From NCBI GenBank assembly GCA_017610205.1, contig JAFCCL010000001.1, forward strand, positions 157,199 through 221,198: a stretch of 64,000 bases of DNA. The letters run 5' to 3'. Positions within the stretch are counted from its first letter, which is position 1; each line of letters begins with the position of its first letter. A program made the position numbers and the translations under genes. Origin of the DNA: Candidatus Iainarchaeum sp. Its GTDB lineage: Archaea; Iainarchaeota; Iainarchaeia; Iainarchaeales; GCA-2688035. A model generated the notes under the pieces. The model saw nothing but the letters and a program-made list of their open reading frames with translations. It was not told where the DNA came from and searched no databases. Shown here piece by piece: positions 25,988-45,517 of the stretch.

Positions 25988-27148
25988 GGGCAGCTTCTTT
26001 TTAATACACACTTCATAAAATTGAGCAAACGTCTTTTTTCCCATCAGAAATTCTTGGTAAGGAGAATAAAGCTCGCCGTCAAACAAAACTTCCATTTCGC
26101 CACTGTTTGGCTTTAAAGCAGGCAAGCCGTAAATAGCATCCTTGACTGTTATAAATGAAGGCAAACCATCAGAGCCATCAGAAAATAGTGGCTTAGGTGA
26201 AGCCAACTTTGTTTCAGTTCTAAACCCAGTAATGAAAACTCTTCTCCTCCTCTGAGGAACACCATATTCTTCAGCCTTAAGTTTCCAAGGCTCATTAACA
26301 TGATAACCAATGCCCTCAAAAGCCTCAACTATTTCTTTAAGAGCTGCTCCTTTTCTCATAGAAAGTATGCCTGGAACATTTTCCATCACAAAAGCTTCAG
26401 GTTTTATTTTTTTGACTAAGTCAACAAAGTGAACAAAAAGGTCATTGCGTGCATCCTTTGGATTCCTCCAACCAGCATGAGAAAATCCTTGGCAGGGTGG
26501 ACCTCCAACCACTACACCAATTTTGTATTTTTTTGCTAGACTGGAAAGTCTTTCTTTATTTTTATTTTCGCGAATATCGCCTAGTATACAGAAAGCAGGA
26601 TCTATTTCAGGATTGTTTTTGAGGAATGTTTCAAAAAAGCGTTTTTCTATTTCAATGGCTCCAACAACATCAAAGCCCGCTAGTTTAAATCCTTCAGAAA
26701 AACCACCTGCACCGGAAAAAAGGTCGATTGTTTTGTCGCTATTAACATGCTTCTTGACTTCTGTTGCAACTGCTCTTGCTAAGAGTGGAGGAACAGCATT
26801 GCCTATTTGTTTAAACTGTGAAGTTTTTGCGCCATGAAAAATGAAATTGTCTTTGAATGATTGCAGTCTTGCACCTTCTCTTAGAGAAATAAGTCTGTTT
26901 TGGGAAGGGTGTATATGGCAACCGTTTCCAATTCTGTTAAAGTATGTTGAAATAGTGTAACTTGGTTTGTCATATCGTAAACGACCATAATAAGTGGTTC
27001 TGCCACCGCTTTCTCTTATTTGCTTTAAACGTTGTGAAGGAATGTGCGGAGGGATGCTTGCCCAATTTCCCCCCGGCGGGATGTGGTTAACCATCTGCAT
27101 TTCTAATTGGCTAAAGCCGGGCGTTATATGGTTATGTAGTTTTCTCAT
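25973..27148 (-). CDS. DNA (cytosine-5)-methyltransferase with circularly permuted motif order (IX-X before I-VIII)
   Basis: N-terminal RLISLREGARLQSFKDNF (IX) and QIGNAVPPLLA (X). Then DLFSGAGGFSEGF (I), GGPPCQGFS (IV), FVMENVPGIL (VI) and GVPQRRRRVFITG (VIII). Confidence 0.85.
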   Translation of the reverse strand: MRKLHNHITPGFSQLEMQMVNHIPPGGNWASIPPHIPSQRLKQIRESGGRTTYYGRLRYDKPSYTISTYFNRIGNGCHIHPSQNRLISLREGARLQSFKDNFIFHGAKTSQFKQIGNAVPPLLARAVATEVKKHVNSDKTIDLFSGAGGFSEGFKLAGFDVVGAIEIEKRFFETFLKNNPEIDPAFCILGDIRENKNKERLSSLAKKYKIGVVVGGPPCQGFSHAGWRNPKDARNDLFVHFVDLVKKIKPEAFVMENVPGILSMRKGAALKEIVEAFEGIGYHVNEPWKLKAEEYGVPQRRRRVFITGFRTETKLASPKPLFSDGSDGLPSFITVKDAIYGLPALKPNSGEMEVLFDGELYSPYQEFLMGKKTFAQFYEVCIKKKLPSYLF

Positions 27149-29099
27149 TGTAAAACAGCCTAATATAGTTAATTTCTCTAGAATTTAAACCATACTGTTT
27201 GAAAATCTCTTCCTCAAGTTTTTCATTATTTTTTGCATCTAAAAGCCCTTTTTGCGGGAGGATGATGGGCAATTCTCCTAGTTCGTAGTTACTTATATGA
27301 TTGTTGTAGTTTGATATTTTGAATCGCCAGTTCAATAATTTTGAGTTCAACAGCTTTACGAGAACCTCGTTAGAGATTCTTTTATCTTCACTCAAAAGGT
27401 AATTGCAAGAATTTGCAACAATAGTACTTTCTGGCACCATTCTAAAATTTAGTTTTTTAACTAAATCCACGTTAGCAATTTGCTGGCCGGCAATTCTCTC
27501 CTTTTGGATGTCCTCTATTTTGTTTGAACTGACTTTAGTTAGAAAGTTTTTTTGAACGAAAGCTTTTTTCGCAGTGCTTTTTATATCTTTTCCTCTAACC
27601 AAAGACAGGAGCGTTTCTCTCTCCGTTATATACTTTTTGTCCTGAGTTAGGTCTAATTCGCCTCGTTTGTTTCTGATTAGCGTAAATTCTTTTAGTTTTT
27701 TGAAAGAGTTGAGCTTTTTTAGAACAGACCATCCAACTGAATCTAACAACGGTATTTCTAATTTTGAGAAATTTTCTTTTATGTCGTTTATGTCAATCAG
27801 AACCTTTTCATCGTTTTTATTATGAAGTATTGATTCCATTTTACTTGTTTTCTCACCCTTTTTTACTTGAATTATCACTAATGATTGATTAACATTTTGA
27901 AAAAGCTGATTCTGTTCTTTGAAAAAATGCACTTTACTCAAATTACATTCAAGCAAAAGAGCTTTTCTTAAATCATAGGCACTGGAATCCCCTAGTAAAG
28001 TTGAAGGTATTATGGCTCCAATTGAACCTTGACTATTTGTTATCTTCAAGGCAATTTCTAAAAACAAACGATAATAGTTCAACATTCCTTTAGCTGAAAG
28101 AGGATATAGCTTTGAATTGTGAATAAAATTCTTTTCCTCTTCTACTCTATCCTTTTCCTGTTGATAAATTTCATTCAAGATTTTGGGCGAAATTTCTTTT
28201 GTTGATGCCGTGAAAAAATCACTTCTGTTTATTTTCAAAACTTTGTAAGGAGGATTCATAACAACCGCGTCAAATCCGCCTTGATTTTCAAAAACGTTTT
28301 TGAACGCGCTAAAGAAAGAGAATCGCTTTTTAGGGGATTTGCTTAAACCATAAATAGCGTTCCCAACAACTATCTGCTTCTGCAACTTCTTTATAGCCTC
28401 TAATCTTTGTTCTTTGGGAAATTCGTTTGCAAGTCTTAGGATTGTTATATCAACGGAAATAGAATCAATATCAGTACCATACAAGTTATTCAAAGCTTTG
28501 TCTTTATCTTTTGCTAAAGCCAGACAGGAAAGGAGGAAACGGCCAGTACCACAACCTAAGTCAATCACTTTGTTGTTCTCCACATCCTCCACAGTTTCAC
28601 TACAAATAAGATTAGAAATTTCTTTTGGAGTAAAAAATAGACCTTTTCCTTTTAGTCCTGTTTTCTTTTTCTTAATCTTTCCATTCTCAAAAAACTTTGA
28701 GTTAAACCATTGCTGTTGTTCAACCAGCGTATCCAAAACATTAGAAAAGTGGTTTTTAGTTTTTTTCTCAAGTTTATCTACAAGGAGTGAAGTAGAAGAA
28801 GAATCAAAGGTATTGAAGAGCCCTTCCTTTTTAACAAAATTCTCAAACTCAGAATATGTTTTAAATTCCATATTCCAGCTATTAAACCACCGATAAATCA
28901 AAAATTTTACAATAGTTTCATGCACCCTTCTATGCGATTCCTTAAATTTTGCTAGAATAGGCTCTTGTAAAAGCTCTTCCTGTTCCAGAGATTCTAATAA
29001 CTGCAAATCCTCAACCACCGTATTATAGATGGAAATACCGCTTTTAAATCTATCAAGAGAGAGGGTTTCCGGTGAAATATTAAAAAGTGCGGCAGTCAT
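27132..29099 (-). CDS. N6-adenine DNA methyltransferase (gamma-class, Eco57I/TaqI-like) with large target-recognition C-terminus
   Basis: GLFFTPKEISNLI (motif X), VIDLGCGTGRFLL (motif I), AVVMNPPY (motif IV). Trimmed to ATG 29099, which overlaps the upstream small ORF stop (ATGA). Confidence 0.85.
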   Translation of the reverse strand: MTAALFNISPETLSLDRFKSGISIYNTVVEDLQLLESLEQEELLQEPILAKFKESHRRVHETIVKFLIYRWFNSWNMEFKTYSEFENFVKKEGLFNTFDSSSTSLLVDKLEKKTKNHFSNVLDTLVEQQQWFNSKFFENGKIKKKKTGLKGKGLFFTPKEISNLICSETVEDVENNKVIDLGCGTGRFLLSCLALAKDKDKALNNLYGTDIDSISVDITILRLANEFPKEQRLEAIKKLQKQIVVGNAIYGLSKSPKKRFSFFSAFKNVFENQGGFDAVVMNPPYKVLKINRSDFFTASTKEISPKILNEIYQQEKDRVEEEKNFIHNSKLYPLSAKGMLNYYRLFLEIALKITNSQGSIGAIIPSTLLGDSSAYDLRKALLLECNLSKVHFFKEQNQLFQNVNQSLVIIQVKKGEKTSKMESILHNKNDEKVLIDINDIKENFSKLEIPLLDSVGWSVLKKLNSFKKLKEFTLIRNKRGELDLTQDKKYITERETLLSLVRGKDIKSTAKKAFVQKNFLTKVSSNKIEDIQKERIAGQQIANVDLVKKLNFRMVPESTIVANSCNYLLSEDKRISNEVLVKLLNSKLLNWRFKISNYNNHISNYELGELPIILPQKGLLDAKNNEKLEEEIFKQYGLNSREINYIRLFYNEKTT

Positions 29100-29305
29100 C
29101 TGACCACCGCTAAAATCTTTGTTTTTTCCCTGTTTACTTCTTCTTCGAGAAGTTGATTGAGTTTGGCTGCAAGCTCTGCCTTGCATTCAACTAAGTCGTC
29201 TGACTCGTCAAGCTCAACAGAAGCTCCGAGGCAGATACCTTTAGTTTCGTAGTTCCCAAGATTCACTTTCTGGGAAAGGTTCATGGAAAGGCTTCTCACA
29301 TTCAT
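29096..29305 (-). CDS. small hypothetical protein, first gene of the methyltransferase operon
   Basis: 69-aa ORF whose stop overlaps the N6-MTase ATG by 4 nt. No known motif. Confidence 0.45.
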   Translation of the reverse strand: MNVRSLSMNLSQKVNLGNYETKGICLGASVELDESDDLVECKAELAAKLNQLLEEEVNREKTKILAVVR

Positions 29306-29657: not shown

Positions 29658-30521
29658 ATGAAACTAGCTTTAGCATTCGGTAAAAAAACCAAAAAAATAA
29701 TTATCATGCTAGCAATTCTAATGCTAGGAATACTCATTGGCACATCAATACCAACAACCCAAGAAATAGCACCAACAACAGCCCAGGAAACAGCATCAAC
29801 AACTACTGTGCTACCAAATTACTACAATGAATACCAACAAACATTAAACCTATACAATCAAGCATTGCAACAAAACCAGCAATTAACAAACCGATTAACA
29901 ACTGCAAAAGAACCGCCCTACATTATAATGGAAGGAAGAACAGTTACAACAGCCTTCAAAAAAACAGACGGAACAACAATCCTCTGGGAATGGCCCGCAG
30001 ACACATACCAATCATGGGTAATACAAGGATATCTAACTCGAAAATCAGGAATGCAATATGTAACACTAGCAATGGAAAACGGAAAAAGACCTACAATGGT
30101 AGACTACACAAAATTCGTCGACGCAGACACATTCGGCAAAGTAATTCCTCCAATCTATGATGCCAGCCTAAGCGATGAAGAATTCATCAAAGAAGCATGG
30201 AACCTAGTAACACAACTAACAACATATTCGGCTGACATTCAAGAAACTCCGAGATATCCAATAGAAACAATAACGGAAGGCGGAGGCGACTGCGAAGATA
30301 TGGCAATATTAATGGCAAGCCTGCTAAAAGCAGCAGACAAAAATTGGAAAGTACAATTAGTATACATGGATGCAGACAACCCAGAAAACCCTACCACTAT
30401 AAACCATGCATTAGTATATGTTGACACAGGAATATACTCAACCTTTATAGACACAACACAAAACATCCAAATGAACCCATACCTCTACGACACAGTTTCC
30501 GGATTCTATTTCGATGCCTAA
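29658..30521 (+). CDS. membrane-anchored transglutaminase-fold cysteine peptidase-like protein (paralog A)
   Basis: N-terminal TM IIIMLAILMLGILIG. Cys-His-Asp candidates in EGGGDCEDMAILMASLLKA, INHALVYVD and FIDTT. Clear paralog of 39182-40084. Confidence 0.75.
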   Translation: MKLALAFGKKTKKIIIMLAILMLGILIGTSIPTTQEIAPTTAQETASTTTVLPNYYNEYQQTLNLYNQALQQNQQLTNRLTTAKEPPYIIMEGRTVTTAFKKTDGTTILWEWPADTYQSWVIQGYLTRKSGMQYVTLAMENGKRPTMVDYTKFVDADTFGKVIPPIYDASLSDEEFIKEAWNLVTQLTTYSADIQETPRYPIETITEGGGDCEDMAILMASLLKAADKNWKVQLVYMDADNPENPTTINHALVYVDTGIYSTFIDTTQNIQMNPYLYDTVSGFYFDA

Positions 30522-30613: not shown

Positions 30614-31675
30614 ATGGATGCGCTTGAACTATCAGATAGGATCAATACAATATTTAGTAAAGAACTACGAAATATGCAAGTTGCTTTTCCTCAAAACAAA
30701 TTTTTGGGCTCAAGAAAATATCTTTGCAGTCTACAGATTGCTGGGAGTCAAGGGAACATTACAGAAGTGTTTTGTGGTTCGAAGTTGGGCCCACTAAACG
30801 ATTACTATGATAAAACAGAACTATGCTTTGAAAATTTGCAATTACTTCTAAGACTATATAATCTAATAAAAGAAAATGGTTTCTTGGAAAGGGAATTTAC
30901 ATCCATTTTAACCGCAAGATTAAATGAAGGCATTCCTCAGATAGCCTATCTTTCCTTCGAAACATTAATAAAAATGGGAAAACTGGATGATGCTCTATTA
31001 CTTTTGACAGGTCTAAGAGATGAATCAGCTATGCATTGTTGTCTGCTAGACTTAAACGCACTTTTGAGATTTGAAACAAACCAATTTTTGCCCACTGATC
31101 TTAAAAAAATTGAAAATTCGCTACAAAACATAAAACATCTTAGCGGCGTTTGTAGAATAATAATAAGCGGGATTTACGAACAAATAAATGAAATAAAACA
31201 CCGTGCACTAAAAAAAGAATTAAGTGAAACTAATAGTTTTGAAATAGAACGAAACAAAGAAGAAGTAAAACAAAAATTGAAAGAGCAAAAATTTGATACT
31301 CAACTAATCAAAGCAATAGACAGAGCAGGTCAGAAGTACAACACAGCGAAAACAGAGGAGGAATTCTGTGAATGTCTTGACATAACAAGAAAAGTTTTAG
31401 ACAACCTAACAAAAGAAATGGCAAAAAGAATCATTAAAACAGACAAACCAATAAAAGGAAAATTAACCAACGCGGCAGATGTAAGAGATTACCTAAGAGA
31501 TCAAAAGCTAATAACAGAAAAACAACATGGTCTAGTGAGGGGGGTTTACGGGTTCATTAGTGACGAAGGCACACATAAATTAATTAGCACAGGAGATCAA
31601 GCAAGACTAGGAAAAAATATGCTCATAGAAGTATCACTCCTTCTACTAAAAAACAGTGAAAAATACAAGCTATAA
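30614..31675 (+). CDS. hypothetical protein (helical; no confident domain)
   Basis: 353-aa ORF. The C-terminal helices ...EKQHGLVRGVYGFISDEGTHKLIS... are only vaguely HEPN/Abi_C-like. Confidence 0.55.
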   Translation: MDALELSDRINTIFSKELRNMQVAFPQNKFLGSRKYLCSLQIAGSQGNITEVFCGSKLGPLNDYYDKTELCFENLQLLLRLYNLIKENGFLEREFTSILTARLNEGIPQIAYLSFETLIKMGKLDDALLLLTGLRDESAMHCCLLDLNALLRFETNQFLPTDLKKIENSLQNIKHLSGVCRIIISGIYEQINEIKHRALKKELSETNSFEIERNKEEVKQKLKEQKFDTQLIKAIDRAGQKYNTAKTEEEFCECLDITRKVLDNLTKEMAKRIIKTDKPIKGKLTNAADVRDYLRDQKLITEKQHGLVRGVYGFISDEGTHKLISTGDQARLGKNMLIEVSLLLLKNSEKYKL

Positions 31676-31878: not shown

Positions 31879-32574
31879 TTATTTAGAGTTCCATAATTTA
31901 GGCTCATCGAGCAATATTTCAAAATGTTTTTTTAGAGCTAATCCACGTGCTATCCATGCAAGTTGGAGTGCATAGGTTAACTCTTTAAATAAAGCCATTA
32001 TAAATTTTTCTTTTTCTTTCCCATGGTATTCTTCTAAAATTTCTGTTTTTTTATCATCTTTAAACAGTACAAGATGGTCTTTTCCTAACCAGTATAATTG
32101 GTGAGCTATCTTGTTGCGTTCATCTCTAGAATTTTTATTTAATATGTCAGTTAACCCATCTCTCTTAAGAACAGAAAAGGCATCTGAATAAAATTTTAGG
32201 ATAAGATATGATTTTTTAGTATCGTCCTGTAATTCTTGGCGAAAAGTGATAATATTTAAGCTAAGTTGAGTATAATCTCTAGCAACATCTAATGGGGCAA
32301 TGGCAGTTAAAGTTTTTTTTCCATAGACTTTTTTAAAAAAGAGGCTCGAGAGGCCATTTGCAACGTTTCTTATTTTTCTTTCGTCAAAACCCATTTTTTT
32401 TAACAGCAAGATTTGTTTTTCAGATTTCTTTTCCAGTTCATCTAGCTGCTTTTGGATTTGCTGTCTAGGAAGTAGACTATTAAATTTGCCAGGGGGGCTA
32501 TTTGTATTTCCTACTAAAAATCTCTTAACTTCTTTGTCAAGTTTTAATATTTCTTCAAAATTTGCTATTTTCAT
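31879..32574 (-). CDS. HEPN-domain candidate (R-x4-H motif)
   Basis: 231 aa. NSRDERNKIAHQLYW contains RNKIAH (RNxxxH), the canonical HEPN RNase motif, in an all-helical context. Confidence 0.55.
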   Translation of the reverse strand: MKIANFEEILKLDKEVKRFLVGNTNSPPGKFNSLLPRQQIQKQLDELEKKSEKQILLLKKMGFDERKIRNVANGLSSLFFKKVYGKKTLTAIAPLDVARDYTQLSLNIITFRQELQDDTKKSYLILKFYSDAFSVLKRDGLTDILNKNSRDERNKIAHQLYWLGKDHLVLFKDDKKTEILEEYHGKEKEKFIMALFKELTYALQLAWIARGLALKKHFEILLDEPKLWNSK

Positions 32575-32749: not shown

Positions 32750-33049
32750 TTGAACAAAAAATTAACAATACTGTTCCTGGCCCTGCTATTAGTTCTGCCA
32801 ATCGCTTTCGCTGAAGGCGATGTAACAGCCATAACAGAGCCATTGACCAGAATCTATGACTTGCTGAAAGGAGTTGTTTCAGTCGTGGCAGTCATAGCCA
32901 TAACAATTGCCGGTGCCAGATTTATGTTCTCAGGCGACAACATCCAGCAAAGAGAAGCAAGCAAAACAATGGTAGGCTACTGCATAATGGGCTTGGTAGT
33001 CGTATGGGTTGCACCATTAATGGTCAGTTACTTAACAGCCCCAATATAA
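32750..33049 (+). CDS. TrbC/VirB2-like pilin
   Basis: 99 aa. Signal peptide LLLVLPIAFA|EGD, then two hydrophobic helices (VVSVVAVIAITIAGARFMF, MVGYCIMGLVVVWVAPLMVSYL) separated by the charged loop SGDNIQQREASKT. TTG start with SD aagaggtga upstream. Confidence 0.7.
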   Translation: MNKKLTILFLALLLVLPIAFAEGDVTAITEPLTRIYDLLKGVVSVVAVIAITIAGARFMFSGDNIQQREASKTMVGYCIMGLVVVWVAPLMVSYLTAPI

Positions 33050-33065
33050 AAGGAGGAATGTACAA

Positions 33066-34055
33066 TTGAACAGAAAAATTTACGAAGTGTGCGTTCCCTT
33101 CCTTTTTCTGATGTTTCTCGGCAGAGCCTTTGCATTAAATGAACCAATGCCGCCGCCAATAGTAAATATTGACTTGGGAATAATATCAGAAGCAATAAAC
33201 CAAATGTTCACAGGACTAACCCAGTCACTAACAGAACTGCCCGCCGCCGTAGTAAACCAATTCCTTGCCTCACTACAAAGCCTTACCGCAAACTTTCTTA
33301 CAACCCTACTGTTAATAGCAAAAGAGTTTATAACAACAAACCCAGACATCGCACCAATGTTTCCACTATGGCAAACAATAGTTTACATAATTTCACTATT
33401 CTACCTAATACTCTTTCTCATAGTAGGCTTCTTTTTCTTATTCAGCTCAATTGACGCAGAAAAAAGAACAAGCGCAAAAAAATGGTTCAAAAGCACAATC
33501 ATAATGATTGCCGCAGTCGGCGCATCCTTCCAACTATACGAAATATTTCTAGCAATAGGAGCAGGAGTAGCTACATATTTATGGGCATCAGAATTCGAAG
33601 TACTATTCCAAGCAAGCGAACTCACAGCACTAAACCTAATCCTGCTAACAGTTTACAGTGGAGCAGTCCTCGCCGCATTCATAACACTTTTCATCAGACA
33701 CCTGTTCCTTGTAATGGGCGCAGCAATATTTCCAATAGCCCTATTCTTCTACTTTATAGAACCGCTAAAACCCTGGGGGAAAATGCTGCTCGAAATTCTC
33801 TTCGCCGCAGTCCTCATGCAAATAATTGATGTAATAATCTTCATCGGCTCACAAATTGTCTGGGAACAATTCATAGGTCTGCCAGACATTGCAGGCTGGG
33901 CGCCAACAATGGCCTTTGGCTTAGTCGCAATCATAAACACAATAATAATTGCATTCGCAGTAATAAAAGCATCAAAAACAGTAACCCAACAACTACCAGA
34001 AGTAGTCGCCGTAGCAAAAATGGCAGGCACAGCCGCAATAGGAGCAATAGCATGA
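33066..34055 (+). CDS. polytopic membrane protein, VirB6/TrbL-like by position and topology
   Basis: 329 aa with 6 or more TM helices, immediately after the pilin gene. TTG start preceded by aaaggagg. Confidence 0.55.
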   Translation: MNRKIYEVCVPFLFLMFLGRAFALNEPMPPPIVNIDLGIISEAINQMFTGLTQSLTELPAAVVNQFLASLQSLTANFLTTLLLIAKEFITTNPDIAPMFPLWQTIVYIISLFYLILFLIVGFFFLFSSIDAEKRTSAKKWFKSTIIMIAAVGASFQLYEIFLAIGAGVATYLWASEFEVLFQASELTALNLILLTVYSGAVLAAFITLFIRHLFLVMGAAIFPIALFFYFIEPLKPWGKMLLEILFAAVLMQIIDVIIFIGSQIVWEQFIGLPDIAGWAPTMAFGLVAIINTIIIAFAVIKASKTVTQQLPEVVAVAKMAGTAAIGAIA

Positions 34056-34074
34056 ATAAAGAGGTGAAAGAAAA

Positions 34075-34383
34075 ATGAGTTTATGGTTTTTTTCTTCTGT
34101 CTTCGCCGCTTCTCCGTTCCGAAAATTCTCCAGGGTAGTTTTCTGCAGGTTTTGGTTTTTTAAGTTTCTTAAAAACCTTTTGTCGCAACATGCCTGGCAA
34201 GGTAAACCACTCCACGCGTTCTTTTGCATGAGGAGGAGTACTGTGCCTTCTTTCTTGTCCTGTTCTTCTCTCTTTTCCACTTCTCCTTTCCGGACCGGTA
34301 TATTTAGGTTTTGGTCTTGGCATCCAATTTCACCTATAAACTCTACACATTCAAAGAATTTAAACCTTTGCAGGTGTGACTAA
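34075..34383 (+). CDS. small hypothetical protein (aromatic/Cys-rich), translationally coupled to the next gene
   Basis: SD agaggtga sits 7 nt upstream of ATG 34075. The stop TAA shares one nt with the next ATG (TAATG). The composition is odd, and an antisense ORF (34081-34323) with ERRSGxxRR repeats also exists. Confidence 0.4.
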   Translation: MSLWFFSSVFAASPFRKFSRVVFCRFWFFKFLKNLLSQHAWQGKPLHAFFCMRRSTVPSFLSCSSLFSTSPFRTGIFRFWSWHPISPINSTHSKNLNLCRCD

Positions 34384-35321
34384 TGCCTTACGAAATACCC
34401 CAAAACCTAAAATACAAAGAAAAAATTGCCTTCAACCTCACATTCGAACAAATGGCCTGGCTTGGAGTGTTCGGAACAATAGCCGCAATAATTTACCTAA
34501 AAACAGGCCTGCCTTTTCCGATAAAAGAAGGAATTGCACTATTGATTGCATCAATTGGATGCGGGTTTGCATTCCTAAACTTTACAGAACACCTAAAAAC
34601 ATTCAGAACCTACAAAAAAAGCATTAACAAAGCAGGCTATTTTGACCCAAAAATGCGCCAGCTCGTCGACGTCAAAAAAATAGAAAAGGACGTAATCTTC
34701 TTGAAAGACGGTTCAATGAGAGCCTTGCTGCAAATTACGCCATTGAACTTTTCAATGCTTTCAAAAAACGAACAGCAGGCAATAATAAAAGCCTACAAAG
34801 ACTTTCTCAACAGCATGGACTTCACAGTACAAATAGTTGCAAGAACAGTAAACCTCTCACTCGAAAGCTACCTCAGAACACTTCACGAAAAAGCAGTTCA
34901 ATCAAAAAACGAAAAATTAGTCGAACAATTCGAATCATTCAGAGAATTCCTAAACCAATTCATAGAACAAAACGCAGTCAAAGACCGGCTGTTCTATTTG
35001 GTAATTCCAAACAGCCAAGAAAACGGAATTTTCCTATTTAAAAGCCAGCAAAAAACAGAACAATCCCTAAAAGAATTAGACATCAGAGTAAAGTTATGCC
35101 AGCAAAAACTCAAAAAATGCAACCTCCTCACAAAACACCTGAACTCGGAAGAGCTCACCTCACTTATGGCTAGCTTCTTTCACGGATTCATAGAAGCCCA
35201 AAACGAATACTTCTTCCCAACAACAATGCTAAAAAAATTCGAAAAACAAAACCCAATTAGAAAATGGATTGACCTAAACGGTTCAGAACAAACAATCCAA
35301 AACGCAGGAGTGACAGCATGA
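34383..35321 (+). CDS. PrgI/VirB3-like 2-TM segment fused to a VirB4 N-terminal domain
   Basis: YEIPQNLKYKEKIAFNLTFEQMAWLGVFGTIAAII (PrgI-like), then IEKDVIFLKDGSMRALLQITPLNFSMLSKNEQQAIIKAYKDFLNSMDFTVQIVARTVNL, as in the N-domain of Gram-positive-type VirB4 (PrgJ/TcpF-like). Confidence 0.65.
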   Translation: MPYEIPQNLKYKEKIAFNLTFEQMAWLGVFGTIAAIIYLKTGLPFPIKEGIALLIASIGCGFAFLNFTEHLKTFRTYKKSINKAGYFDPKMRQLVDVKKIEKDVIFLKDGSMRALLQITPLNFSMLSKNEQQAIIKAYKDFLNSMDFTVQIVARTVNLSLESYLRTLHEKAVQSKNEKLVEQFESFREFLNQFIEQNAVKDRLFYLVIPNSQENGIFLFKSQQKTEQSLKELDIRVKLCQQKLKKCNLLTKHLNSEELTSLMASFFHGFIEAQNEYFFPTTMLKKFEKQNPIRKWIDLNGSEQTIQNAGVTA

Positions 35322-35500
35322 ACGAAACACTTGATAGCAAATGGAAAAAAGCAATAATACAAATAGCAACAGAACTTCGCAAGGCTAATCAAATAAGTGC
35401 GGTAATCGGAAATGGGCTATTAGGAAAAGAGATTGGTCAAATAAAAGAAAAAAAGAAAAGATTCAGCGAAATAGAAAAAATAAGAAAAGGCGTTAGCTAA
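35318..35500 (+). CDS. small hypothetical protein
   Basis: 60 aa. Its ATG overlaps the preceding stop (ATGA). Confidence 0.4.
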   Translation: MNETLDSKWKKAIIQIATELRKANQISAVIGNGLLGKEIGQIKEKKKRFSEIEKIRKGVS

Positions 35501-35513
35501 TTATTGTTTTTAA

Positions 35514-36824
35514 ATGGTTTCTTGCTCATTTAAGAATATGGAGTTAGATGAAGATGAAACAATTACTCTGAAAGATGCTGTTTCTCGAGAAGGAGCTTTT
35601 CTTAGAGATAAATTAGCGGAACATTTTAGTGATGACAACCTTTTAGAAGTACATGCAATAGAACATCCTGTTTGTTTTGATGGTCAAAAAAGAAGAATTG
35701 ATCTTATTCTAAAAACTAGGAAAAGAGGTATATGCCCGTTTGAAATTTTTTTTGTAATCGAAGTGAAGAAGCTAAACCGCAAACATTCTGCAATAATAAG
35801 CTTTGGCGATCAAGAGAAAAGAGATTTTTTCTATGCAAGTGTTTTAGGCGCTGACCCGGAAGTAAAAATTATTCGAGAAAAGCAAAGAAACGTAATTGAA
35901 ACAACCAATAAAATAGACTTTTTTAGTGATTTTTGTGCCTTTGACAAAAAAATTTTAGAAAAAGTAAAGAAACAGAAACCAAAAGCAATACTTTCTAATG
36001 TAAGACTAAATCGTAAAGACGAAACCAATCAAGCTTTGCAACAAGCATATCAAGGAACCTGTGGATTTCTAAAAGAATTAGAAACCAAATATGGCGTTGG
36101 TTTTAAGCGACTTTCAGGTGGAAAATTAGAAATTGACAGAAACCGGTATATTATCCCTGTTGTAATAACTACTGCTGAGTTTACTCTTGCATTATTGGAT
36201 TTGAATAAATATTCTCTAGAAACAGGCGAATTCAAAAACGAAAGCCTAAAGTTAAAACCAAGTAGTTGGCACGCTATAAAATATTCAGAAGCCCGATTAA
36301 CAGCTATTGAAGACCCATTTGTTGAACAAGAAATATTTGTTGTGAATACAAGCAATCTTGACAAGTTCTTTAAAGAAATAGTCGCCTCTGTATTGCGCCA
36401 CCATTTCAAATTTACTCAATTAACTCAAAGGAATAAAAAAATAGGGCCCTTAATTAAAAACCATAATGACAAAATAAAATCTATAAAATATGTCGATATC
36501 CTGCATTTAGTTACCAAAAAGAACCTGTGGGGCAGATTTAGAGATTGGTTTAAATCGGATTTGATAAATGATGAAAATCCATTCGGTTTGGAACGACTTA
36601 AAACCGATTTAGACGATAGAATAAATTCAGATCCAGATCTTTTCAAGCTTACAGTATACTTAGTTTCTATTTACTACAATGACAAATGGGTGTCTGGTTC
36701 ACCGCAGTCCTTAGAACTTTGGCTAGGAGCGAACTACTATCGGCATATTATAGAATTTTTCGATTTTTTGAAGCTTTCCGATATACAAGAGCTTGTCTTT
36801 GAAAAGAAAAATTATTCTGTATAA
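35514..36824 (+). CDS. PD-(D/E)xK (NERD-like) nuclease-domain protein sitting between the two VirB4 parts
   Basis: EHPVCFDGQKRRIDLILKT...FEIFFVIEVKKLN fits E...D...ExK. The C-terminal ~250 aa are unassigned. Confidence 0.55.
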   Translation: MVSCSFKNMELDEDETITLKDAVSREGAFLRDKLAEHFSDDNLLEVHAIEHPVCFDGQKRRIDLILKTRKRGICPFEIFFVIEVKKLNRKHSAIISFGDQEKRDFFYASVLGADPEVKIIREKQRNVIETTNKIDFFSDFCAFDKKILEKVKKQKPKAILSNVRLNRKDETNQALQQAYQGTCGFLKELETKYGVGFKRLSGGKLEIDRNRYIIPVVITTAEFTLALLDLNKYSLETGEFKNESLKLKPSSWHAIKYSEARLTAIEDPFVEQEIFVVNTSNLDKFFKEIVASVLRHHFKFTQLTQRNKKIGPLIKNHNDKIKSIKYVDILHLVTKKNLWGRFRDWFKSDLINDENPFGLERLKTDLDDRINSDPDLFKLTVYLVSIYYNDKWVSGSPQSLELWLGANYYRHIIEFFDFLKLSDIQELVFEKKNYSV

Positions 36825-36872
36825 CCTTTTCACTCCTCCTTTTTATACTCCTTGAGTTGAGTAATAAGGCTT

Positions 36873-39101
36873 ATGTCAAAGCAGACTCAAAGTATCTTGG
36901 AGCCTTTACTAAAGCCTTCTTTTGTCAAGAATTCGCCGGACTGCATTCAGATAAACGAAAACTATAATCGCATTATAATGGCTGTCGGCTACCCGCGACA
37001 AATAGAAGAAGGCTGGCTTGACCGAATAATTTCTTCGGAGGGAAGCTTTGATTTAAGCATGTTTATTGAACCTGCCTCAATTGAATTCATTTTAGGGGAA
37101 TTAAACAAAGAGCTTGTGAAACAGAAAAGCGACATCATGGCAGCTGAACTAAAAGGAATTGTAAACCCCATCCTGCGCGTTCAGTATGAAGACACCTACA
37201 CAACACTGCAAAGACTACAGACCGGTGAAGAAAAGTTATTCAACTTTTCTTTTTATGTAAATGCAAGAAGCTATGACAAAAACGAACTGAACTTGTTGAG
37301 CAAAAAGATTGAATCAGAACTCAATAGCATAATGATTATTCCAAAAACACCCTATCTCAAAATGCAACAAGGCATCCAGTCAATTGTGCCAGTCTGCAAG
37401 GACAGACTTCGCGCTCAAAGAAACATTCCAAGCAACGCACTCTCAGCCTGCTTTCCGTTCACCTCGCGCTTTTTGAACCTTGACGAAGACGGAGTAATGT
37501 TTGGTGTAAACCAATCAAACAACATTCCAATAATCCTAAACCAATACAAGTTCACAAATTACAACGGTATTGTTTTAGGAAGCAGTGGTGGAGGAAAAAG
37601 CTTCTTTGTCAAGCTTTACATTATCCGCAATCTTTTGAAAGGAATGCAGACATACATAGTGGACCCGCAAGGGGAATACTCAGAACTGACACAAAAATAT
37701 GATGGTCAGATTGTAAGCATTTCAAGAAAAAGCAAAACCATAATCAACCCATTGGACTTAATGGACCGTGATTTTGGCGACAAAATGCTTTCTTTAATGG
37801 ACTTGTTCAAAATAATGTTCGGCGAACTAACAGAAGTGCAAAAAAATGTTCTGGACAAAGCACTAATCAAAACATATGAGCAAAAACACATTTTACCAAA
37901 CCAGCCTGAAACATGGAACGCAAAACCACCAATCCTGGAAGACTTGTACAATGTTTTGGAAAAAGAATCAAAGAGCACAAACAAAATTGAAAAAATGACA
38001 TATGATGCTTTACTCAACAGGCTGAGAATTTATGCAAAAGGAAGCTTCTCATTCCTAAACAAGCACACCTACCTTAACCTTGAAAAAAAGCTTATCTCAT
38101 TTAACATAAAAGAAATGCCTACCCAAGTCAAGCCCCTAATGATGTTTCTTATACTTGACTTTATTTACGAAAAAATCCAAAAAGACCACGAAAGAAAACT
38201 TATTGTTGTGGATGAAGCATGGCAGCTGCTCAGATACGGAGAACACGCAGAATACCTGTTTAAAATATGCAAAACAGCAAGAAAATTTGGTGCGGGACTA
38301 GCAATAATTACCCAAGAAGTCAACGACTTACTAAATTCACAGGCTGGAAAGACCATTTTAGCTAATACTGCCTGGAAACTGTTAACAAGACAAGAACCAG
38401 CAGTAATAAACGAGCTAATAGAAAAATTCAACTTAAACAAAGAAGAAAAAAACTTTCTGCTGACAGTTGATGCCGGCGAAGGCCTGCTGTTTGCAATGAA
38501 TGACAGAATTCCAATCAAAGTTGTGGCATCTGAAAAAGAATACGACATTATCACAACAAACCCAGAAGACCTGAAGAAAAGGCAAGTGTTAAGAGAAAAA
38601 ATTTCACTAGAAGAAGACTTCAACGAAGAAGTCTACGGACTAAAAAAAAGCTATTATCAAGTTAACGAGTTAAACGAAAAGCAAATTGCGTTCCTAAAAG
38701 CAAACGGCTATAAAGAATCAAGACAGCTTGGTTTAGAACCAGGAGGCGCACACAAATACCTAATAGGCATGCAACCAGAAAATGAAGGAACAGACCACGC
38801 ATTTCTTGTGCAACTACTTTACGAGGAAATCAGCAAAAAAACAGACAAAGTAATGCGCTACGCCGTTCAAAAACCAGACCTTGTTTTTGTAGCAAACGAA
38901 AAAAGATACGCAATCGAAGTAGAAACAGGAAAAAACCTCTCAGACAAAAACAAAATGAAAGAAAAATCAAAAAAACTAAAAGAATTTGAACAAGGACTAT
39001 TCGTAGTAACCGACTGGAAACTAAAAACAAAATACAAACAATACGGAAAAACACTCGGAAGATTCGAAGTAAAAAAAGAATTAGAAAAATTGTTTCGCTG
39101 A
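36873..39101 (+). CDS. virB4: VirB4-family T4SS ATPase (middle + ATPase domains) with C-terminal PD-(D/E)xK-like extension
   Basis: IIMAVGYPRQIEEGWLDRII, Walker A LGSSGGGKSFFVK, Walker B KLIVVDEAWQLL, and AGLAIITQEVNDLL. The tail (38625-39098) has GTDHAFLV...KPDLVFVANEKRYAIEVETGKN. Confidence 0.85.
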   Translation: MSKQTQSILEPLLKPSFVKNSPDCIQINENYNRIIMAVGYPRQIEEGWLDRIISSEGSFDLSMFIEPASIEFILGELNKELVKQKSDIMAAELKGIVNPILRVQYEDTYTTLQRLQTGEEKLFNFSFYVNARSYDKNELNLLSKKIESELNSIMIIPKTPYLKMQQGIQSIVPVCKDRLRAQRNIPSNALSACFPFTSRFLNLDEDGVMFGVNQSNNIPIILNQYKFTNYNGIVLGSSGGGKSFFVKLYIIRNLLKGMQTYIVDPQGEYSELTQKYDGQIVSISRKSKTIINPLDLMDRDFGDKMLSLMDLFKIMFGELTEVQKNVLDKALIKTYEQKHILPNQPETWNAKPPILEDLYNVLEKESKSTNKIEKMTYDALLNRLRIYAKGSFSFLNKHTYLNLEKKLISFNIKEMPTQVKPLMMFLILDFIYEKIQKDHERKLIVVDEAWQLLRYGEHAEYLFKICKTARKFGAGLAIITQEVNDLLNSQAGKTILANTAWKLLTRQEPAVINELIEKFNLNKEEKNFLLTVDAGEGLLFAMNDRIPIKVVASEKEYDIITTNPEDLKKRQVLREKISLEEDFNEEVYGLKKSYYQVNELNEKQIAFLKANGYKESRQLGLEPGGAHKYLIGMQPENEGTDHAFLVQLLYEEISKKTDKVMRYAVQKPDLVFVANEKRYAIEVETGKNLSDKNKMKEKSKKLKEFEQGLFVVTDWKLKTKYKQYGKTLGRFEVKKELEKLFR

Positions 39102-39181: not shown

Positions 39182-40084
39182 ATGAAAAGAATTGGTTTTT
39201 GTTTATTTCTAATTGTAGTAATCTTGTTTAGTGGCTGTATAAAACAAACCTCTGAACAAAATGATAATTCTAATCAAAATTTTCTTGAAGAGCTTGAAAC
39301 ATGTAAAAACCAAAAATTGAAACTGGGCGTAGATTTAAAAGAATGTCAAAATTCTCTTTCTGAAGCAAATTTTTCTTTGTCAAATTATAAATTATCTCAT
39401 TTGGATTCTTTTACTCCTCCATATACTTATATTGAAGGAAGGACAATCCATACTGTTTTCAAGCTAAGTAATGGACAATTATCTCATTGGACTACTCCTG
39501 CAAATAGTTATGACTATTTTGTAACAACAGAATATTTTATGAACGAATTCGATTTAGCAACACTTCGTTGGCTCAAGGTTTCCCGAGCAACTGACTATTA
39601 TGATAACTATGCTGGAAAATATGTAAAATTATCTCCTGCGGGGCAGATTAAGGAAACGATAAATGCTGTTGACTACCGGCCATTTGTTGAAACTAAAACA
39701 ATAAAATCAATAGCTGATGAATTATATAACATGAGTTCAACGGATGAAGAATTTGTTAAAGAAGTTTTTAATATGTTAAAACAAATTACAACATATACTG
39801 AAGACGTTGACGGAGAAGCACATTTTCCTATAACAACACTTCTTTCTGCAGGTGGCGACTGTGAGGACACTGCAATTTTGACAGCAAGTCTACTAAAAGC
39901 ACCACGTCCCGATTGGCGAGTAGACCTTGTTTATATGGATGCAAACAATCCAGAAAACCCAGCAGAATTTAATCATGTAGCAGTTTATGTAGACACTGGA
40001 GAGTATGCAACTTTTATTGAAACAACTTCCACAAGCGAAATGAGTCCTTATACAAAAGTTGTTGGATGGTACTTTACTGTATAA
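39182..40084 (+). CDS. transglutaminase-fold cysteine peptidase-like lipoprotein (paralog B)
   Basis: Lipobox-like LFSGC. SAGGDCEDTAILTASLLKA, FNHVAVYVD and FIETT. Colinear with 29658-30521, including PPY.YIEGRT and SDEEFVKE. Confidence 0.75.
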   Translation: MKRIGFCLFLIVVILFSGCIKQTSEQNDNSNQNFLEELETCKNQKLKLGVDLKECQNSLSEANFSLSNYKLSHLDSFTPPYTYIEGRTIHTVFKLSNGQLSHWTTPANSYDYFVTTEYFMNEFDLATLRWLKVSRATDYYDNYAGKYVKLSPAGQIKETINAVDYRPFVETKTIKSIADELYNMSSTDEEFVKEVFNMLKQITTYTEDVDGEAHFPITTLLSAGGDCEDTAILTASLLKAPRPDWRVDLVYMDANNPENPAEFNHVAVYVDTGEYATFIETTSTSEMSPYTKVVGWYFTV

Positions 40085-42395: not shown

Positions 42396-42956
42396 TTAGC
42401 TTCTTTCCAAAACAAAAGCACAGCATTTGCCCTTACCTTCACATACTCTACAAGCATCCTTAATGCTTGTACCTTCCCAACCCCCCTCACCATTTTCAAG
42501 CTTGTATTCTTCAATGCCATTATTAAGCTCTTCCAAGTTAACATCGCAGACAACTGCAATCCTTGTGACCTGGTTGCTTGAACCATGGTATACAAGCCTT
42601 TGATTATCACTAGCATCTTCGCATCCAATACATTCAAAACCATTTACAAAATCTTCCGCAAACTGACCAGTACTCATACAAATCTGGTCCTGACTTATTG
42701 ACAGCCTCTCCACTAGAGTGCTTGCTGTAAGCACATCACCTGGCCTGAAAACAACCTCTGACGAGTATTTTAATGCACCAGACGAATCATCAAGGTCTAT
42801 AAGCAAAGACCTTATTTTACTCAAGGGGGTGCCCCAATCATCTGTTTGAATTGGTAGATTCAAGATTCCAAAAATTACTATTACAAGAAGTACTACTGCA
42901 ACAATCACTACAATAAGCAACTTAAAAGCTTTGTGCACTTGCTCTTTGTTATTCAA
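42396..42956 (-). CDS. membrane-anchored/secreted Cys-rich hypothetical protein
   Basis: N-terminal TM LLIVVIVAVVLLVIVIFGIL. C-terminus has multiple Cys (CRVCEGKGKCC). Confidence 0.5.
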   Translation of the reverse strand: MNNKEQVHKAFKLLIVVIVAVVLLVIVIFGILNLPIQTDDWGTPLSKIRSLLIDLDDSSGALKYSSEVVFRPGDVLTASTLVERLSISQDQICMSTGQFAEDFVNGFECIGCEDASDNQRLVYHGSSNQVTRIAVVCDVNLEELNNGIEEYKLENGEGGWEGTSIKDACRVCEGKGKCCAFVLERS

Positions 42957-43158: not shown

Positions 43159-43671
43159 ATGGAGCAGCAAGCTCTTGAACTGAAAAAGATATTTAATGGA
43201 GTAATTGACAGCTTTGGATTAAACCACGCACGCGTATACTATACTCTGCTGTCAAGTGAAGTTAAAACCGCAAAACAATTGATTGAAACAACAAACGTAA
43301 ACCAGGCAACCACTTACGCAGTACTACGTGAACTGCTTAAATGGGAGCTAATCAAGCACAGCAACACAAACCCGACAAGCTATTTTATTGACAACCCAAT
43401 GAAAACCTTTGAACAACAAGTCAAAAGAAAAGAAAAAATAATCAACACCAAACGAAAACAACTAGAAAACCTAATAGCATCAGACACAGACGAAACAGAA
43501 AAATACATAATCAAAATAGGAAAAGGGCAACAAACAAAACTCGTGAACGTGCTTACAAAAAAAGAAATCAAATACAAAGGAGAACTAATAAAAATAAAAG
43601 AATCGCTGGACAAAATGCTGAAAGAGGCGCCGGAAAAAGAAAAGAGGTACGCTTTCGCTTACTACAAATAA
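43159..43671 (+). CDS. TrmB-like winged-helix transcription regulator
   Basis: ARVYYTLLSSEVKTAKQLIETTNVNQATTYAVLRELLKWELI resembles the TrmB N-terminal HTH. Confidence 0.55.
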   Translation: MEQQALELKKIFNGVIDSFGLNHARVYYTLLSSEVKTAKQLIETTNVNQATTYAVLRELLKWELIKHSNTNPTSYFIDNPMKTFEQQVKRKEKIINTKRKQLENLIASDTDETEKYIIKIGKGQQTKLVNVLTKKEIKYKGELIKIKESLDKMLKEAPEKEKRYAFAYYK

Positions 43672-43715: not shown

Positions 43716-44813
43716 ATGGATATAGAAAAGCTAAAAACACTTGCCCTTAAACTTCAGGGCGAATTATTAACTTCGAGTAGAAAATATTTGTCAGATGAAA
43801 AAATATCACATACCAAATTGATAGACCTTCACGAAAATGCGCAAAAAATACTGCCGGACCATAAAACCCTTTTTGAAAGACATATAGAAACTTTAAAAGA
43901 TCCAATTCTGTATATAACAACAAAAGAAGCAGCCGATTTATGTAAAGATATTTTTGAATATGCTATTTTAGAAGACGATAAAAAGGAAAAAAGTGAAACA
44001 CTCGCTAAAGACCCACTTACTGATTTATTTGAAAAGAATAAATTAGCGGAGTTAGATTTTTCTAAATATAAAGAACTTTCAATTGCCTTTCTTGATTTAG
44101 ATAATTTCAAAAAAATAAACGACAAATACAAACATAATAAAGGCGATCTTGCACTAATACAAGTTGCCTCTGCACTAAAGGAAATTGTAGGAAAAAATCA
44201 TTGGGTTTTAAGAAACCACGGCAGTCGAGGAGATGAGTTTATAGTTGTTTTTTTAGATTTAGAGAAAGAAAAAGCATTTAGATTAATTGAAGAATGCAGA
44301 AAAAAAATAGAACACAATAAAGTTGAAAATTTCAACATAACAGTTAGCATCGGTATTGCATCATATCCTAATGATGGAAAAACTCTAAATGAGATTATAG
44401 AAAAAGCCGATGAAGCAATGTATCTTTCTAAAGAAAACGGAAGAAATTGCACGACTCTCTATGATGAAAGCATGGTAAATGAAATAGAAACTATTAATTT
44501 TAGACTTGAGGAAATTGCTAATATAAAAAATGGGGCTAAAGTCATTGTAAAAAGTTGGAAGTGTCATCAGGCTCCTAATATAACTAATTTAGAAGCAATC
44601 GAACTAAGAGACTTAGATGAAGATATCCTGTATACTAGTAGAAATAAAGGCGGAATGGCGACTATTATAACCATTGAAAAAGAAATTCGTGGCGTTGTTA
44701 GAGGGGTTAAAAGGCCACCAGGGCAAACGTTATTTGAATTAGTGGTTCAAAAAAAGCAACTAGAAGGAATTTCATCAGATCCAAAGGATTTTTTGAGTCC
44801 TTTAGTTAGATAA
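43716..44813 (+). CDS. GGDEF-domain (diguanylate-cyclase fold) protein with RGDEF motif and unknown N- and C-terminal domains
   Basis: DPLTDLFEKNKL, IAFLDLDNFKKINDKYKHNKGD, HGSRGDEFIVVF (RGDEF at 44226-44240), VSIGIASYP, and ADEAMYLSKENGRNC. Confidence 0.8.
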   Translation: MDIEKLKTLALKLQGELLTSSRKYLSDEKISHTKLIDLHENAQKILPDHKTLFERHIETLKDPILYITTKEAADLCKDIFEYAILEDDKKEKSETLAKDPLTDLFEKNKLAELDFSKYKELSIAFLDLDNFKKINDKYKHNKGDLALIQVASALKEIVGKNHWVLRNHGSRGDEFIVVFLDLEKEKAFRLIEECRKKIEHNKVENFNITVSIGIASYPNDGKTLNEIIEKADEAMYLSKENGRNCTTLYDESMVNEIETINFRLEEIANIKNGAKVIVKSWKCHQAPNITNLEAIELRDLDEDILYTSRNKGGMATIITIEKEIRGVVRGVKRPPGQTLFELVVQKKQLEGISSDPKDFLSPLVR

Positions 44814-44943: not shown

Positions 44944-44956
44944 CCTGTCGTTGGCG
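44944..44956 (+). repeat. attR-like copy of the tRNA-Ser(TGA) 3' end
   Basis: Exact 13-nt match, cctgtcgttggcg, to 21887-21899. Confidence 0.75.
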
Positions 44957-44984
44957 AAAAAAATAATTATTTAAACGAGATATT

Positions 44985-45416
44985 CTATTGTTTCGGTGGC
45001 TGAAAGGTTTCCAAGTATTTTTTGACTTCTGACTGACAGTTCTGTAAAAAAGAATCTATGTTTTGGGTTGGGTTGATAAAAGAAGTAATAGATAAAATTA
45101 GTGGGTTTTCTGCTTGAATTCTTTCAGATTTTTGTTTCGCAGTATCGAAAGCATAAAGACAGGTTTCTTTAACGACTTCGGTTGGAGCATATTTTTCAAT
45201 ACAAGCCCTGTACTCATGCTGGCATAAGCTGGTGGCAATATCTTCTTCCCTGTGGAGAGGAGCGTAAAGAGAAATCATTTGATAGGATAAGACCTTACCC
45301 CGATTGTCGACAGTTTTCCTTGCATCCTGCTGGATACTCAATCCGTGTAAATAAAGTGCTGAAAGTAAGGCAACAACAAGTAGGGCAGATACAAAAACAA
45401 TTCTTTTTGAAAGCAT
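44985..45416 (-). CDS. secreted/membrane-anchored hypothetical protein
   Basis: 143 aa with N-terminal hydrophobic segment IVFVSALLVVALLSAL. Confidence 0.45.
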   Translation of the reverse strand: MLSKRIVFVSALLVVALLSALYLHGLSIQQDARKTVDNRGKVLSYQMISLYAPLHREEDIATSLCQHEYRACIEKYAPTEVVKETCLYAFDTAKQKSERIQAENPLILSITSFINPTQNIDSFLQNCQSEVKKYLETFQPPKQ

Positions 45417-45517
45417 TTAGTTTCTTAGGCACTTTCCCCTATTTTATTCTTTTGCTTTGATTTAAATTGTTTTGCCTGCAAAAGTAACTAAAGCTTAAAG
45501 CGTTTACATAACAACAG

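Follow-up and report, generated by a model that had tools for sequence, protein, structure and literature searches.

A type IV secretion module with a split VirB4 motor and a probable nuclease-fold domain on a tRNA-integrated archaeal island

We analyzed a 64,000-nt stretch of contig JAFCCL010000001.1 (positions 157,199 to 221,198 of the forward strand), deposited in assembly GCA_017610205.1 as Candidatus Iainarchaeum sp. and termed here the window. Close to its center, six plus-strand open reading frames (ORFs) encode proteins of 99, 329, 312, 60, 436, and 742 amino acids (aa), and we are highly confident that this region is the type IV secretion system (T4SS) module of an integrated mobile element. 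A preliminary description made from the DNA letters had already proposed a T4SS here and listed five colinear parts. Four of them (the pilin, the 329-aa protein, a PrgI segment with a VirB4 N-domain, and the VirB4 ATPase) are found where they had been placed, and profile searches with the 99-aa and 742-aa proteins returned matches to the VirB2 and VirB4 families. The junctions between the genes had been described as tight or overlapping, but not all of them are, given the 327-nt gap that follows the 329-aa gene and a 1551-nt gap (35322-36872) between the two VirB4 genes. The latter contains the conserved 60-aa gene and the 436-aa ORFan, both of which the preliminary description had passed over.

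Table 1 Features of the island and of its T4SS module, in window coordinates.
Feature	Position	Strand	Evidence and remarks
tRNA-Ser(TGA)	21815-21901	+	ARAGORN, Rfam
Left attachment (att) repeat CCTGTCGTTGGCG	21887-21899	+	Last 13 nt of tRNA-Ser
Tyrosine integrase (XerA-like)	21959-23164	+	Pfam Phage_integrase 2.4e-18; NCBIfam XerA_Arch 2.8e-26
Alw26I-type (type IIS) restriction-modification cargo	24539-29186		Pfam RE_Alw26IDE 3.7e-132, DNA_methylase 1.6e-68, Eco57I/N6_Mtase
Secreted transglutaminase-like cysteine-protease-fold protein, first paralogue	29658-30521	+	42% identical to second; the two bracket the T4SS module
VirB2/TrbC-type pilin	32750-33049	+	99 aa; Pfam, hydropathy
VirB6-position polytopic membrane protein	33066-34055	+	329 aa, 7 hydrophobic segments; hydropathy, position
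Locus-unique insert	34056-34382		327 nt; no match in any other locus
N-terminal half of split VirB3-VirB4	34383-35321	+	312 aa; PrgI/VirB3-like membrane segment and TraC-like VirB4 N-domain
Conserved basic protein	35318-35500	+	60 aa; recurrent family in 8 loci
ORFan cargo between VirB4 halves	35514-36824	+	436 aa
C-terminal half of split VirB4 (in the 742-aa ORF, 36873-39101)	36873-38651	+	Rest of N-domain and P-loop ATPase; Walker A GSSGGGKS, Walker B VVDEAW
PD-(D/E)xK-like nuclease-fold domain (probable)	38652-39101	+	VirB4 about aa 594-742; AlphaFold2, Foldseek, conservation
Secreted transglutaminase-like cysteine-protease-fold protein, second paralogue	39182-40084	+	
TrmB-family regulator	43159-43671	+	Pfam TrmB 1e-9; homologues near module in 16 loci
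GGDEF-domain protein	43716-44813	+	Pfam 1.3e-29; signature SRGDEF; beside TrmB, inside island
Right att repeat CCTGTCGTTGGCG	44944-44956	+	Exact 13-nt copy; island end

By profile and topology, the 99-aa protein can be classified as a VirB2/TrbC conjugative pilin. It scored above the Pfam gathering thresholds for both T4SS_pilin (2.2e-13, 50.5 bits; cut-off 26.6) and TrbC (8.5e-12, 45.6 bits; cut-off 27.9). Its hydrophobic segments (residues 5-23, 38-56, and 70-88 in the hydropathy profile) correspond to a signal-like segment and two helices, in agreement with the signal peptide and two helices described before, and a TATA-like CCTTTTATAC is located about 50 nt 5' of the gene.

Topology and an invariant position are the main grounds on which the 329-aa protein may be considered a VirB6. 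Seven hydrophobic segments were counted, consistent with the at least six transmembrane helices claimed earlier. A precomputed match to PF19590 (TrbL_3) exists for 8 of 16 homologues, but was not reproduced for the 329-aa protein by our own hmmscan, and a PDB profile search with this protein returned nothing. Its AlphaFold2 model (predicted local distance difference test, pLDDT, of 76) gave no significant Foldseek match; TrwI/VirB6 of R388 appeared at ranks 3, 12, 13, and 14 (E 0.3) with template modeling (TM) scores of 0.32-0.38, the highest among the natural proteins in that list.

The remaining part of the preliminary list, a small coupled ORF (34075-34383), did not survive the comparison with related loci. 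It lies inside the 327-nt insert, which has no counterpart among more than 150 loci, and only 43 nt separate the same two genes in an 89%-identical relative (L001). The 102-aa product shows no Pfam family match and, by eye, its composition resembles the antisense of a K/E/R-rich sequence; this plus-strand ORF is probably spurious. On the opposite strand, the insert contains an 80-aa basic ORF (34081-34323) with repeated (E/D)RR(S/T)G motifs, also without a family match.

The VirB3 segment and VirB4, one protein in relatives, are encoded here by two genes. The 312-aa protein matched Pfam PrgI over residues 5-90 (5.5e-8, 33.7 bits; cut-off 27) and NCBIfam VirB4_plasma (positions 3-286, 3.7e-10), as well as the N-termini of the Mycoplasma-ICE VirB4 (ICE, integrative and conjugative element), CD1110, and TcpF models. 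In a fused relative of 1029 aa (P0028), residues 1-271 align with residues 1-276 of the 312-aa protein (46% identity) and residues 290-1025 with the 742-aa protein (58% identity), the VirB4 N-domain being supplied by the 312-aa gene together with residues 1-210 of the 742-aa protein, colinear with P0028. The PrgI score and this alignment uphold the PrgI/VirB3-like segment fused to a VirB4 N-domain that had been proposed.

The identification of the 742-aa protein as a VirB4 ATPase is likewise sustained by several models. In Pfam, it matched P-loop_TraG (1.2e-26, 93.8 bits) and AAA_10 (4.9e-16, 59.2 bits), both above the cut-off; the best NCBIfam model was the CD1110 VirB4 family (1.3e-91, 308 bits), followed by the Mycoplasma-ICE VirB4 (1.3e-80, 271 bits), and the closest solved structure was the C-domain of Thermoanaerobacter VirB4 (4ag5, 9.6e-51). 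Because the best VirB4 models are those of CD1110 and the Mycoplasma ICE, the module appears to be of the monoderm (MPF-FATA-like) kind. The MPF-FATA-type layout of the preliminary description is thus supported by models far ahead of CedB (58.3 bits, cut-off 700), although the CD1110 score falls just below the equivalog cut-off of 325 bits.

We compared the split and the space between the motor halves in 88 loci. All Iainarchaeum-type relatives (55-89% identity) are split, with gaps ranging from overlaps (-41 to -1 nt) to 93-520, 891, 1160, 1551 (the window), and 1695 nt; Woese-, Pace-, and Nanoarchaeota-type relatives (43-48% identity) possess a single fused gene of 870-1060 aa. The contents of the gap vary even among close relatives: the window has the 60-aa gene, whose family normally abuts the VirB4 ATPase gene, and the 436-aa ORFan, in L001 two membrane proteins accompany the 60-aa gene, and L020 has several minus-strand ORFs without a Pfam match. 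The junction of the motor halves is thus a slot for lineage-specific cargo. For the 436-aa ORFan, the sole match among 5.8 billion proteins was itself, no match was found in Pfam, PADLOC, NCBIfam, or the PDB, and a comparison with the C-terminal domain of VirB4 showed no relation; a putative PD-(D/E)xK motif can be picked out in it by eye. A 279-aa slot ORF of L014 was considered as a primase-polymerase, with no support from Pfam. In L004, L006, L025, L026, and L039, the slot is occupied by another family of small ORFs (about 46-61 aa, motif SFVRTKTIKGxxYSYLVENxRVNGK), again with no Pfam match.

A VirB4 broken in two by 1.55 kb of unrelated DNA, along with the unique 327-nt insert, could also be the mark of decay, i.e. 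of a conjugative-element remnant with a split motor, foreign inserts, and a lost coupling protein and relaxase, and degradation is plain in some relatives, such as L031 and L039. For the window, we find this explanation very improbable. The ratio of nonsynonymous to synonymous substitution rates (dN/dS) between the window and L001 is 0.23 for the pilin gene, 0.24 for the VirB6-like gene, 0.21 for the PrgI/N half, 0.20 for the 60-aa gene, and 0.04 for the VirB4 ATPase half. The range of 0.04-0.24 points to purifying selection on all five core genes, suggesting that the split VirB4 is functional and not decayed. Moreover, about 40 independent loci share the split, the stop and start codons often overlapping, and both the Walker motifs and the candidate nuclease residues described below are intact. 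A promoter-like stretch ahead of the ATPase gene is also conserved: the TATA-like CCTTTTATAC recurs about 28 nt 5' of the gene, and the final 57 nt are 81% conserved in L001 and L002. The split VirB4 with its cargo slot is in itself an unusual gene architecture.

The preliminary description raised the puzzle of a missing relaxase and overlooked a conserved VirB4 domain that bears directly on it. The VirB4 sequence between about residue 570 and residue 742 lies past the end of every VirB4, CedB, and plasmid VirB4 match, the CD1110 and CedB models and the plasmid VirB4s stopping near residue 560-600. We modeled this C-domain with AlphaFold2 from 20 sequences (mean pLDDT 90) and obtained the helix and strand order of restriction-endonuclease-like enzymes. 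The top 30 matches of the model in a Foldseek search of the PDB were dominated by PD-(D/E)xK enzymes (TM 0.44 or less). The best was Cdn1 (E 2.9e-3, probability 0.99), others at the top were VC1899, YaeQ, Can2, OkrAI, McrC, RecU, BspD6I, and VRR-NUC, and Hjc was also among the matches (30% identity over 47 columns, root-mean-square deviation 1.9). From this model, the C-domain probably has a PD-(D/E)xK nuclease fold with a putative nuclease activity.

Candidate catalytic residues are E638, H642, D669, E682, E684, and K698. A hidden Markov model of the C-domain found it in 78 of the 88 loci, each time within the VirB4 ORF, and in these 78 loci H642, D669, and E682 are conserved without exception, E684 and K698 in 76, and E638 in 73. 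A profile search of 1.84 billion representatives returned 739 proteins. In the long ones, the C-domain sits at the C-terminus of a VirB4-sized protein, and many of the short ones are fragment-like; stand-alone C-domains may be represented by a few proteins of about 170 aa and by a single membrane-anchored form.

PADLOC matches of the ATPase to mads8 (5e-20), DndH (4e-19), and HerA models, and a PDB match to DptH (2.2e-14), evoke a defense enzyme of the DptH/HerA-nuclease type that merely happens to stand beside membrane proteins, in a neighborhood that includes restriction-modification and toxin-antitoxin genes. We regard this as the most improbable of the alternatives, given that VirB4-specific models score far higher, that the VirB4 N-terminal domain and the PrgI segment are present, and that synteny with the VirB2 pilin and the VirB6-position protein is invariant in more than 70 loci.

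The module sits on a real integrative element, with a recombinase, direct repeats, and an empty site. The element extends from position 21900 to 44956 (23.06 kb). In a close relative (L151), the tRNA-Ser 3' end joins directly to the sequence that corresponds to window position 45535 onward; this locus comes from the same metagenome-assembled genome (MAG) as an arginyl-tRNA synthetase 85% identical to that of the window, and its flanks are 78-88% identical at the DNA level. Because of the 13-nt repeats and this empty site, we interpret 21900-44956 as an insertion. The integrated 23-kb island of the preliminary description is therefore confirmed, with its att repeats, an integrase beside tRNA-Ser, and a relative that lacks it.

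Shorter copies of the tRNA-Ser 3' end were found at 45524 and 47115, the latter with one mismatch, and the window contains 6 att-type matches versus 0.64 expected by chance. The four plus-strand copies of TGTCGTTGG[C/T]G (21889, 44946, 45524, and 47115) form an array and therefore suggest serial integrations. Besides the 23-kb island, they delimit a 578-bp remnant (44957-45534), which has a secreted ORF of 143 aa, and a 1.6-kb segment that encodes a methyltransferase and a toxin-antitoxin pair of the DUF4258/MazE type. The orthologous tRNA-Ser of L151 (3968-4121) has a 68-nt intron in the anticodon loop, and the window copy, to which the island is attached, is intron-less.

Relatives of the VirB4 occur at 394 places in the GTDB species representatives, in MAGs labeled Iainarchaeum, Woese-, Pace-, and Nanoarchaeota, some of them with two copies. 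The gene order pilin, VirB6-like, (VirB3/N), VirB4 is kept in about 70 loci. Of 19 loci, 17 have a homologous integrase upstream and on the same strand; by profile, an integrase was found in 21 loci, 10 of which have it 56-104 nt after a tRNA gene, and its distance from VirB4 is 2-7 kb in most related loci. The layout of tRNA, integrase, and module thus recurs across other loci, where several of the integrase-adjacent tRNAs are 148-209 nt long.

We also surveyed the neighbors of the module in the 88 related loci and retained the 25 most recurrent families. These include TrmB (16 loci), AsnC/MarR and Fic (8 each), HsdM and N6_N4 methylase (7 each), AbiEii (6), PDDEXK_1 (5), TFIIB, HsdR, and ArdC-N with an M78 peptidase (4 each), and reverse transcriptase (3). 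The cargo of the family consists of restriction-modification, toxin-antitoxin, and ArdC genes. The ArdC-N and M78 peptidase genes, of the anti-restriction type, are near the module in L003, L012, L054, and L082, and their recurrence fits DNA entering a new cell. Outside the family, plasmid VirB4 relatives are at most 31% identical and stop before the C-domain. A viral origin was considered and rejected, as IMG/VR holds no close relative, only ones with 21-25% identity. Some close VirB4 relatives were found in oddly labeled MAGs, i.e. L032 (Peregrinibacteria), L045 and others (Methanosarcinales), and P0045 (Sphaerochaetaceae), reflecting either mis-binning or cross-host transfer.

No MOB relaxase was recognized in the island ORFs or among the 25 recurrent neighbor families. 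More generally, Pfam, NCBIfam, and PADLOC scans of the island's larger ORFs, about 8 of which are unannotated, detected no relaxase, coupling protein, or replication gene, in agreement with the preliminary description; two of the unannotated ORFs (353 and 246 aa) had no PDB match. ORFs without annotation include those at 23334-24074, 30614-31675, 31879-32574, and 42396-42956. Archaeal conjugative elements are generally without a relaxase (PMC9905601, PMC6563490, PMC12857230). Since this lack is the rule among them, it is not by itself an argument against conjugation. The preliminary description had also suggested a DNA import/export or host-contact pilus in place of a classical conjugation system.

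Several known systems resemble the module in part. The MPF-FATA T4SSs (CD1110 family, Mycoplasma ICE, and pCF10 with PrgI/PrgJ) have the closest VirB4, a PrgI-type VirB3 segment, and a polytopic protein in the VirB6 position, and the VirB4s of Bacillota and Actinomycetota plasmids are 28-31% identical to that of the window. Unlike them, the module has a VirB2/TrbC-type pilin, lacks a coupling protein, a relaxase, and a recognizable cell-wall hydrolase, and carries a VirB3-VirB4 fusion that is in turn divided at about residue 280; its VirB4 has the extra C-terminal nuclease-fold domain, whereas MPF-FATA models end at query residue ~560. The secreted transglutaminase-like pair was considered for the part of a conserved cell-wall hydrolase and discarded, as it was found only in this window.

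Among archaeal elements, the pNOB8-type plasmids, pT33-3, and thaumarchaeal ICEs are also relaxase-less and can integrate at tRNA genes by means of tyrosine integrases (PMC6563490, PMC12857230). They share TFIIB, restriction-modification, and VirB6/VirB3 homologues with the family described here (PMC6563490, PMC12857230), TFIIB being a marker of thaumarchaeal ICEs (PMC6563490). They differ in their pair of VirB4 and VirD4 and in their large size (median 64 kb in Thaumarchaeota), whereas the present family is without VirD4 and has a conserved core of four to five genes.

Ced in Sulfolobales and Ted in Thermoproteales are domesticated DNA-import systems (PMC9905601), and they are archaeal, made only of VirB2-, VirB6-, and VirB4-like parts, and without a relaxase or VirD4 (PMC9905601). 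The same three-part set in the window, with neither coupling protein nor relaxase (PMC9905601), raises the alternative of a Ced/Ted-like nucleic-acid import carried on a mobile element: the pilus would contact a cell, VirB4 would pull DNA in, and the nuclease would trim it or degrade one strand, either to allow recombination or to supply a metabolically reduced cell with nucleotides. Incoming DNA could indeed be processed by a nuclease located at the cytoplasmic face. Still, we judge this alternative unlikely. The VirB4 scores 58 bits against CedB (cut-off 700) but 308 and 271 bits against CD1110 and the Mycoplasma ICE, and the CedB model ends before the nuclease domain. An integrase, att sites, and an island absent from a close relative fit the element's own transfer better than a housekeeping import, and the ArdC-type anti-restriction genes of 4 loci suggest DNA that enters a recipient.

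The T4SSs of Patescibacteria (CPR), an ultrasmall and probably symbiotic lineage, offer a further parallel with their MPF-FATA-derived VirB4, VirB2-like pilins, and usual lack of a relaxase (PMC12102498). They differ in being chromosomal and present in about 80% of genomes, whereas here the module lies on an att-bounded island, is sometimes present in two copies, and has a nuclease-fused VirB4. Being widespread and relaxase-less, the Patescibacteria systems are thought to be co-opted for other functions (PMC12102498), and giant nanohaloarchaeal proteins with VirB4-like domains have been proposed to act on hosts (PMC10266531). By analogy, the module could serve an episymbiotic archaeon as a pilus for host contact or effector delivery and transfer no DNA, and in the window it is flanked by a secreted nuclease, a DUF4352 protein, and the secreted transglutaminase-like pair. 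These flanking secreted proteins are not conserved at other loci, however, the mobile island is missing from a close relative, so the module is not essential, and the fusion of a conserved nuclease to the motor argues for nucleic acid as the substrate; we therefore rate a host-contact role as quite unlikely.

The element family combines features of archaeal conjugative plasmids and ICEs, of Ced/Ted, and of Patescibacteria T4SSs with a split motor and the probable nuclease domain. Our literature search found no paper describing a nuclease-fused, split-motor element family, which is no proof that none exists. Overall, the explanation that we favor, with moderate confidence, is that the region forms the mating-pore module of an archaeal integrative element of compact size, with a VirB4-fused nuclease as candidate DNA processor. 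Under this explanation, the element would have entered the tRNA-Ser 3' end by tyrosine-integrase recombination, and the integrase would also excise it. A membrane-anchored VirB4 hexamer would assemble from both halves on VirB3/VirB6 and energize pilus assembly and substrate transfer. The C-terminal nuclease, placed at the cytoplasmic mouth of the channel, would cut or nick the DNA to be moved, and could thereby do the job of the bacterial relaxase and perhaps of the coupling protein too. That the module works as the element's own DNA exporter with nuclease processing is a more tentative proposition.

Several observations weigh against this explanation. Regarding the nuclease, the C-domain had no Foldseek match in the PDB at E 1e-3 or better, and sequence-profile searches against the PDB and Pfam returned nothing significant, so the PD-(D/E)xK assignment is probable but not proven. 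In a by-eye alignment to Hjc (VDLVA...CIEVK), the corresponding PDLVF...AIEVE of the C-domain has a Glu (E684) at the position of the canonical Lys; K698 sits on the helix after the strand with E684. The Glu in place of the ExK Lys presumably reproduces the arrangement of BamHI and OkrAI. Regarding transfer, no VirD4/TraG coupling protein was found in the island ORFs or among the 25 most recurrent neighbor families of the 88 loci, whereas the known archaeal conjugative plasmids and ICEs keep a VirD4-like ATPase beside VirB4 (PMC6563490, PMC12857230). The island has no recognizable replication gene, an integrase is present within 10 kb in only 21 of the 88 loci, and the two unique inserts (34056-34382 and the 436-aa ORFan) could impair expression of the operon.

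Besides the module, the island carries a DUF4352 protein, a complete Alw26I-type system that includes one methylase each of the C5 and N6 kinds, a secreted Excalibur-domain nuclease, and, next to the TrmB-family regulator, the GGDEF-domain protein listed in Table 1; GGDEF proteins are uncommon in archaea. Outside the island, a minus-strand gene (7312-11658) encodes a 1448-aa HerA/DUF87-type ATPase with an intein (LAGLIDADG endonuclease) and a terminal TrmB/IclR-type helix-turn-helix; neither Pfam nor NCBIfam assigns this ATPase to a VirD4 family.

The host had been described as a putative DPANN archaeon. The GMP synthase of the window is split, and the matches of its subunit B (GuaA-B; 41-54% identity) are all archaeal but one (41%); the integrase is closest to archaeal XerA. 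Based on these genes, on the tRNA intron of the relative, and on the long integrase-adjacent tRNAs, the host is archaeal. The DPANN part of the description derives from the labels of MAGs with related modules and is plausible. Two further rounds of Pfam searches on the window ORFs gave no domain-diagnostic markers. The arginyl-tRNA synthetase (61991-63724) is of bacterial type, with a next best match of 43% in Patescibacteria. Searches with this gene and with tRNA-Ser led to close relatives (L133, L134, and L149-L151) labeled Chloroflexi or Thaumarchaeota, which looks like mislabeling of the MAGs.

How DNA is prepared and recruited without a relaxase in archaeal conjugation has been an open question since pNOB8 (PMC9905601, PMC12857230). 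The element family provides a concrete candidate answer, a conserved endonuclease-fold domain on the VirB4 motor of elements that also lack a coupling protein, and such a nuclease-ended motor may explain how archaeal elements transfer DNA without a bacterial nicking enzyme. The strongest form of this proposal, in which the VirB4-fused nuclease is the long-sought DNA processor of relaxase-less archaeal conjugation and an integrase with four to five genes makes a complete self-transmissible element, is doubtful at present; if true, no known conjugation machine would be smaller, a single (split) protein combining the motor with the recruitment of substrate and the cutting of DNA. The family also shows that T4SS-like genes in DPANN-labeled MAGs are, at least in part, components of compact tRNA-integrating mobile elements and not host housekeeping genes, and such a mobile origin matters for the reading of gene flow and symbiosis in DPANN-labeled lineages.

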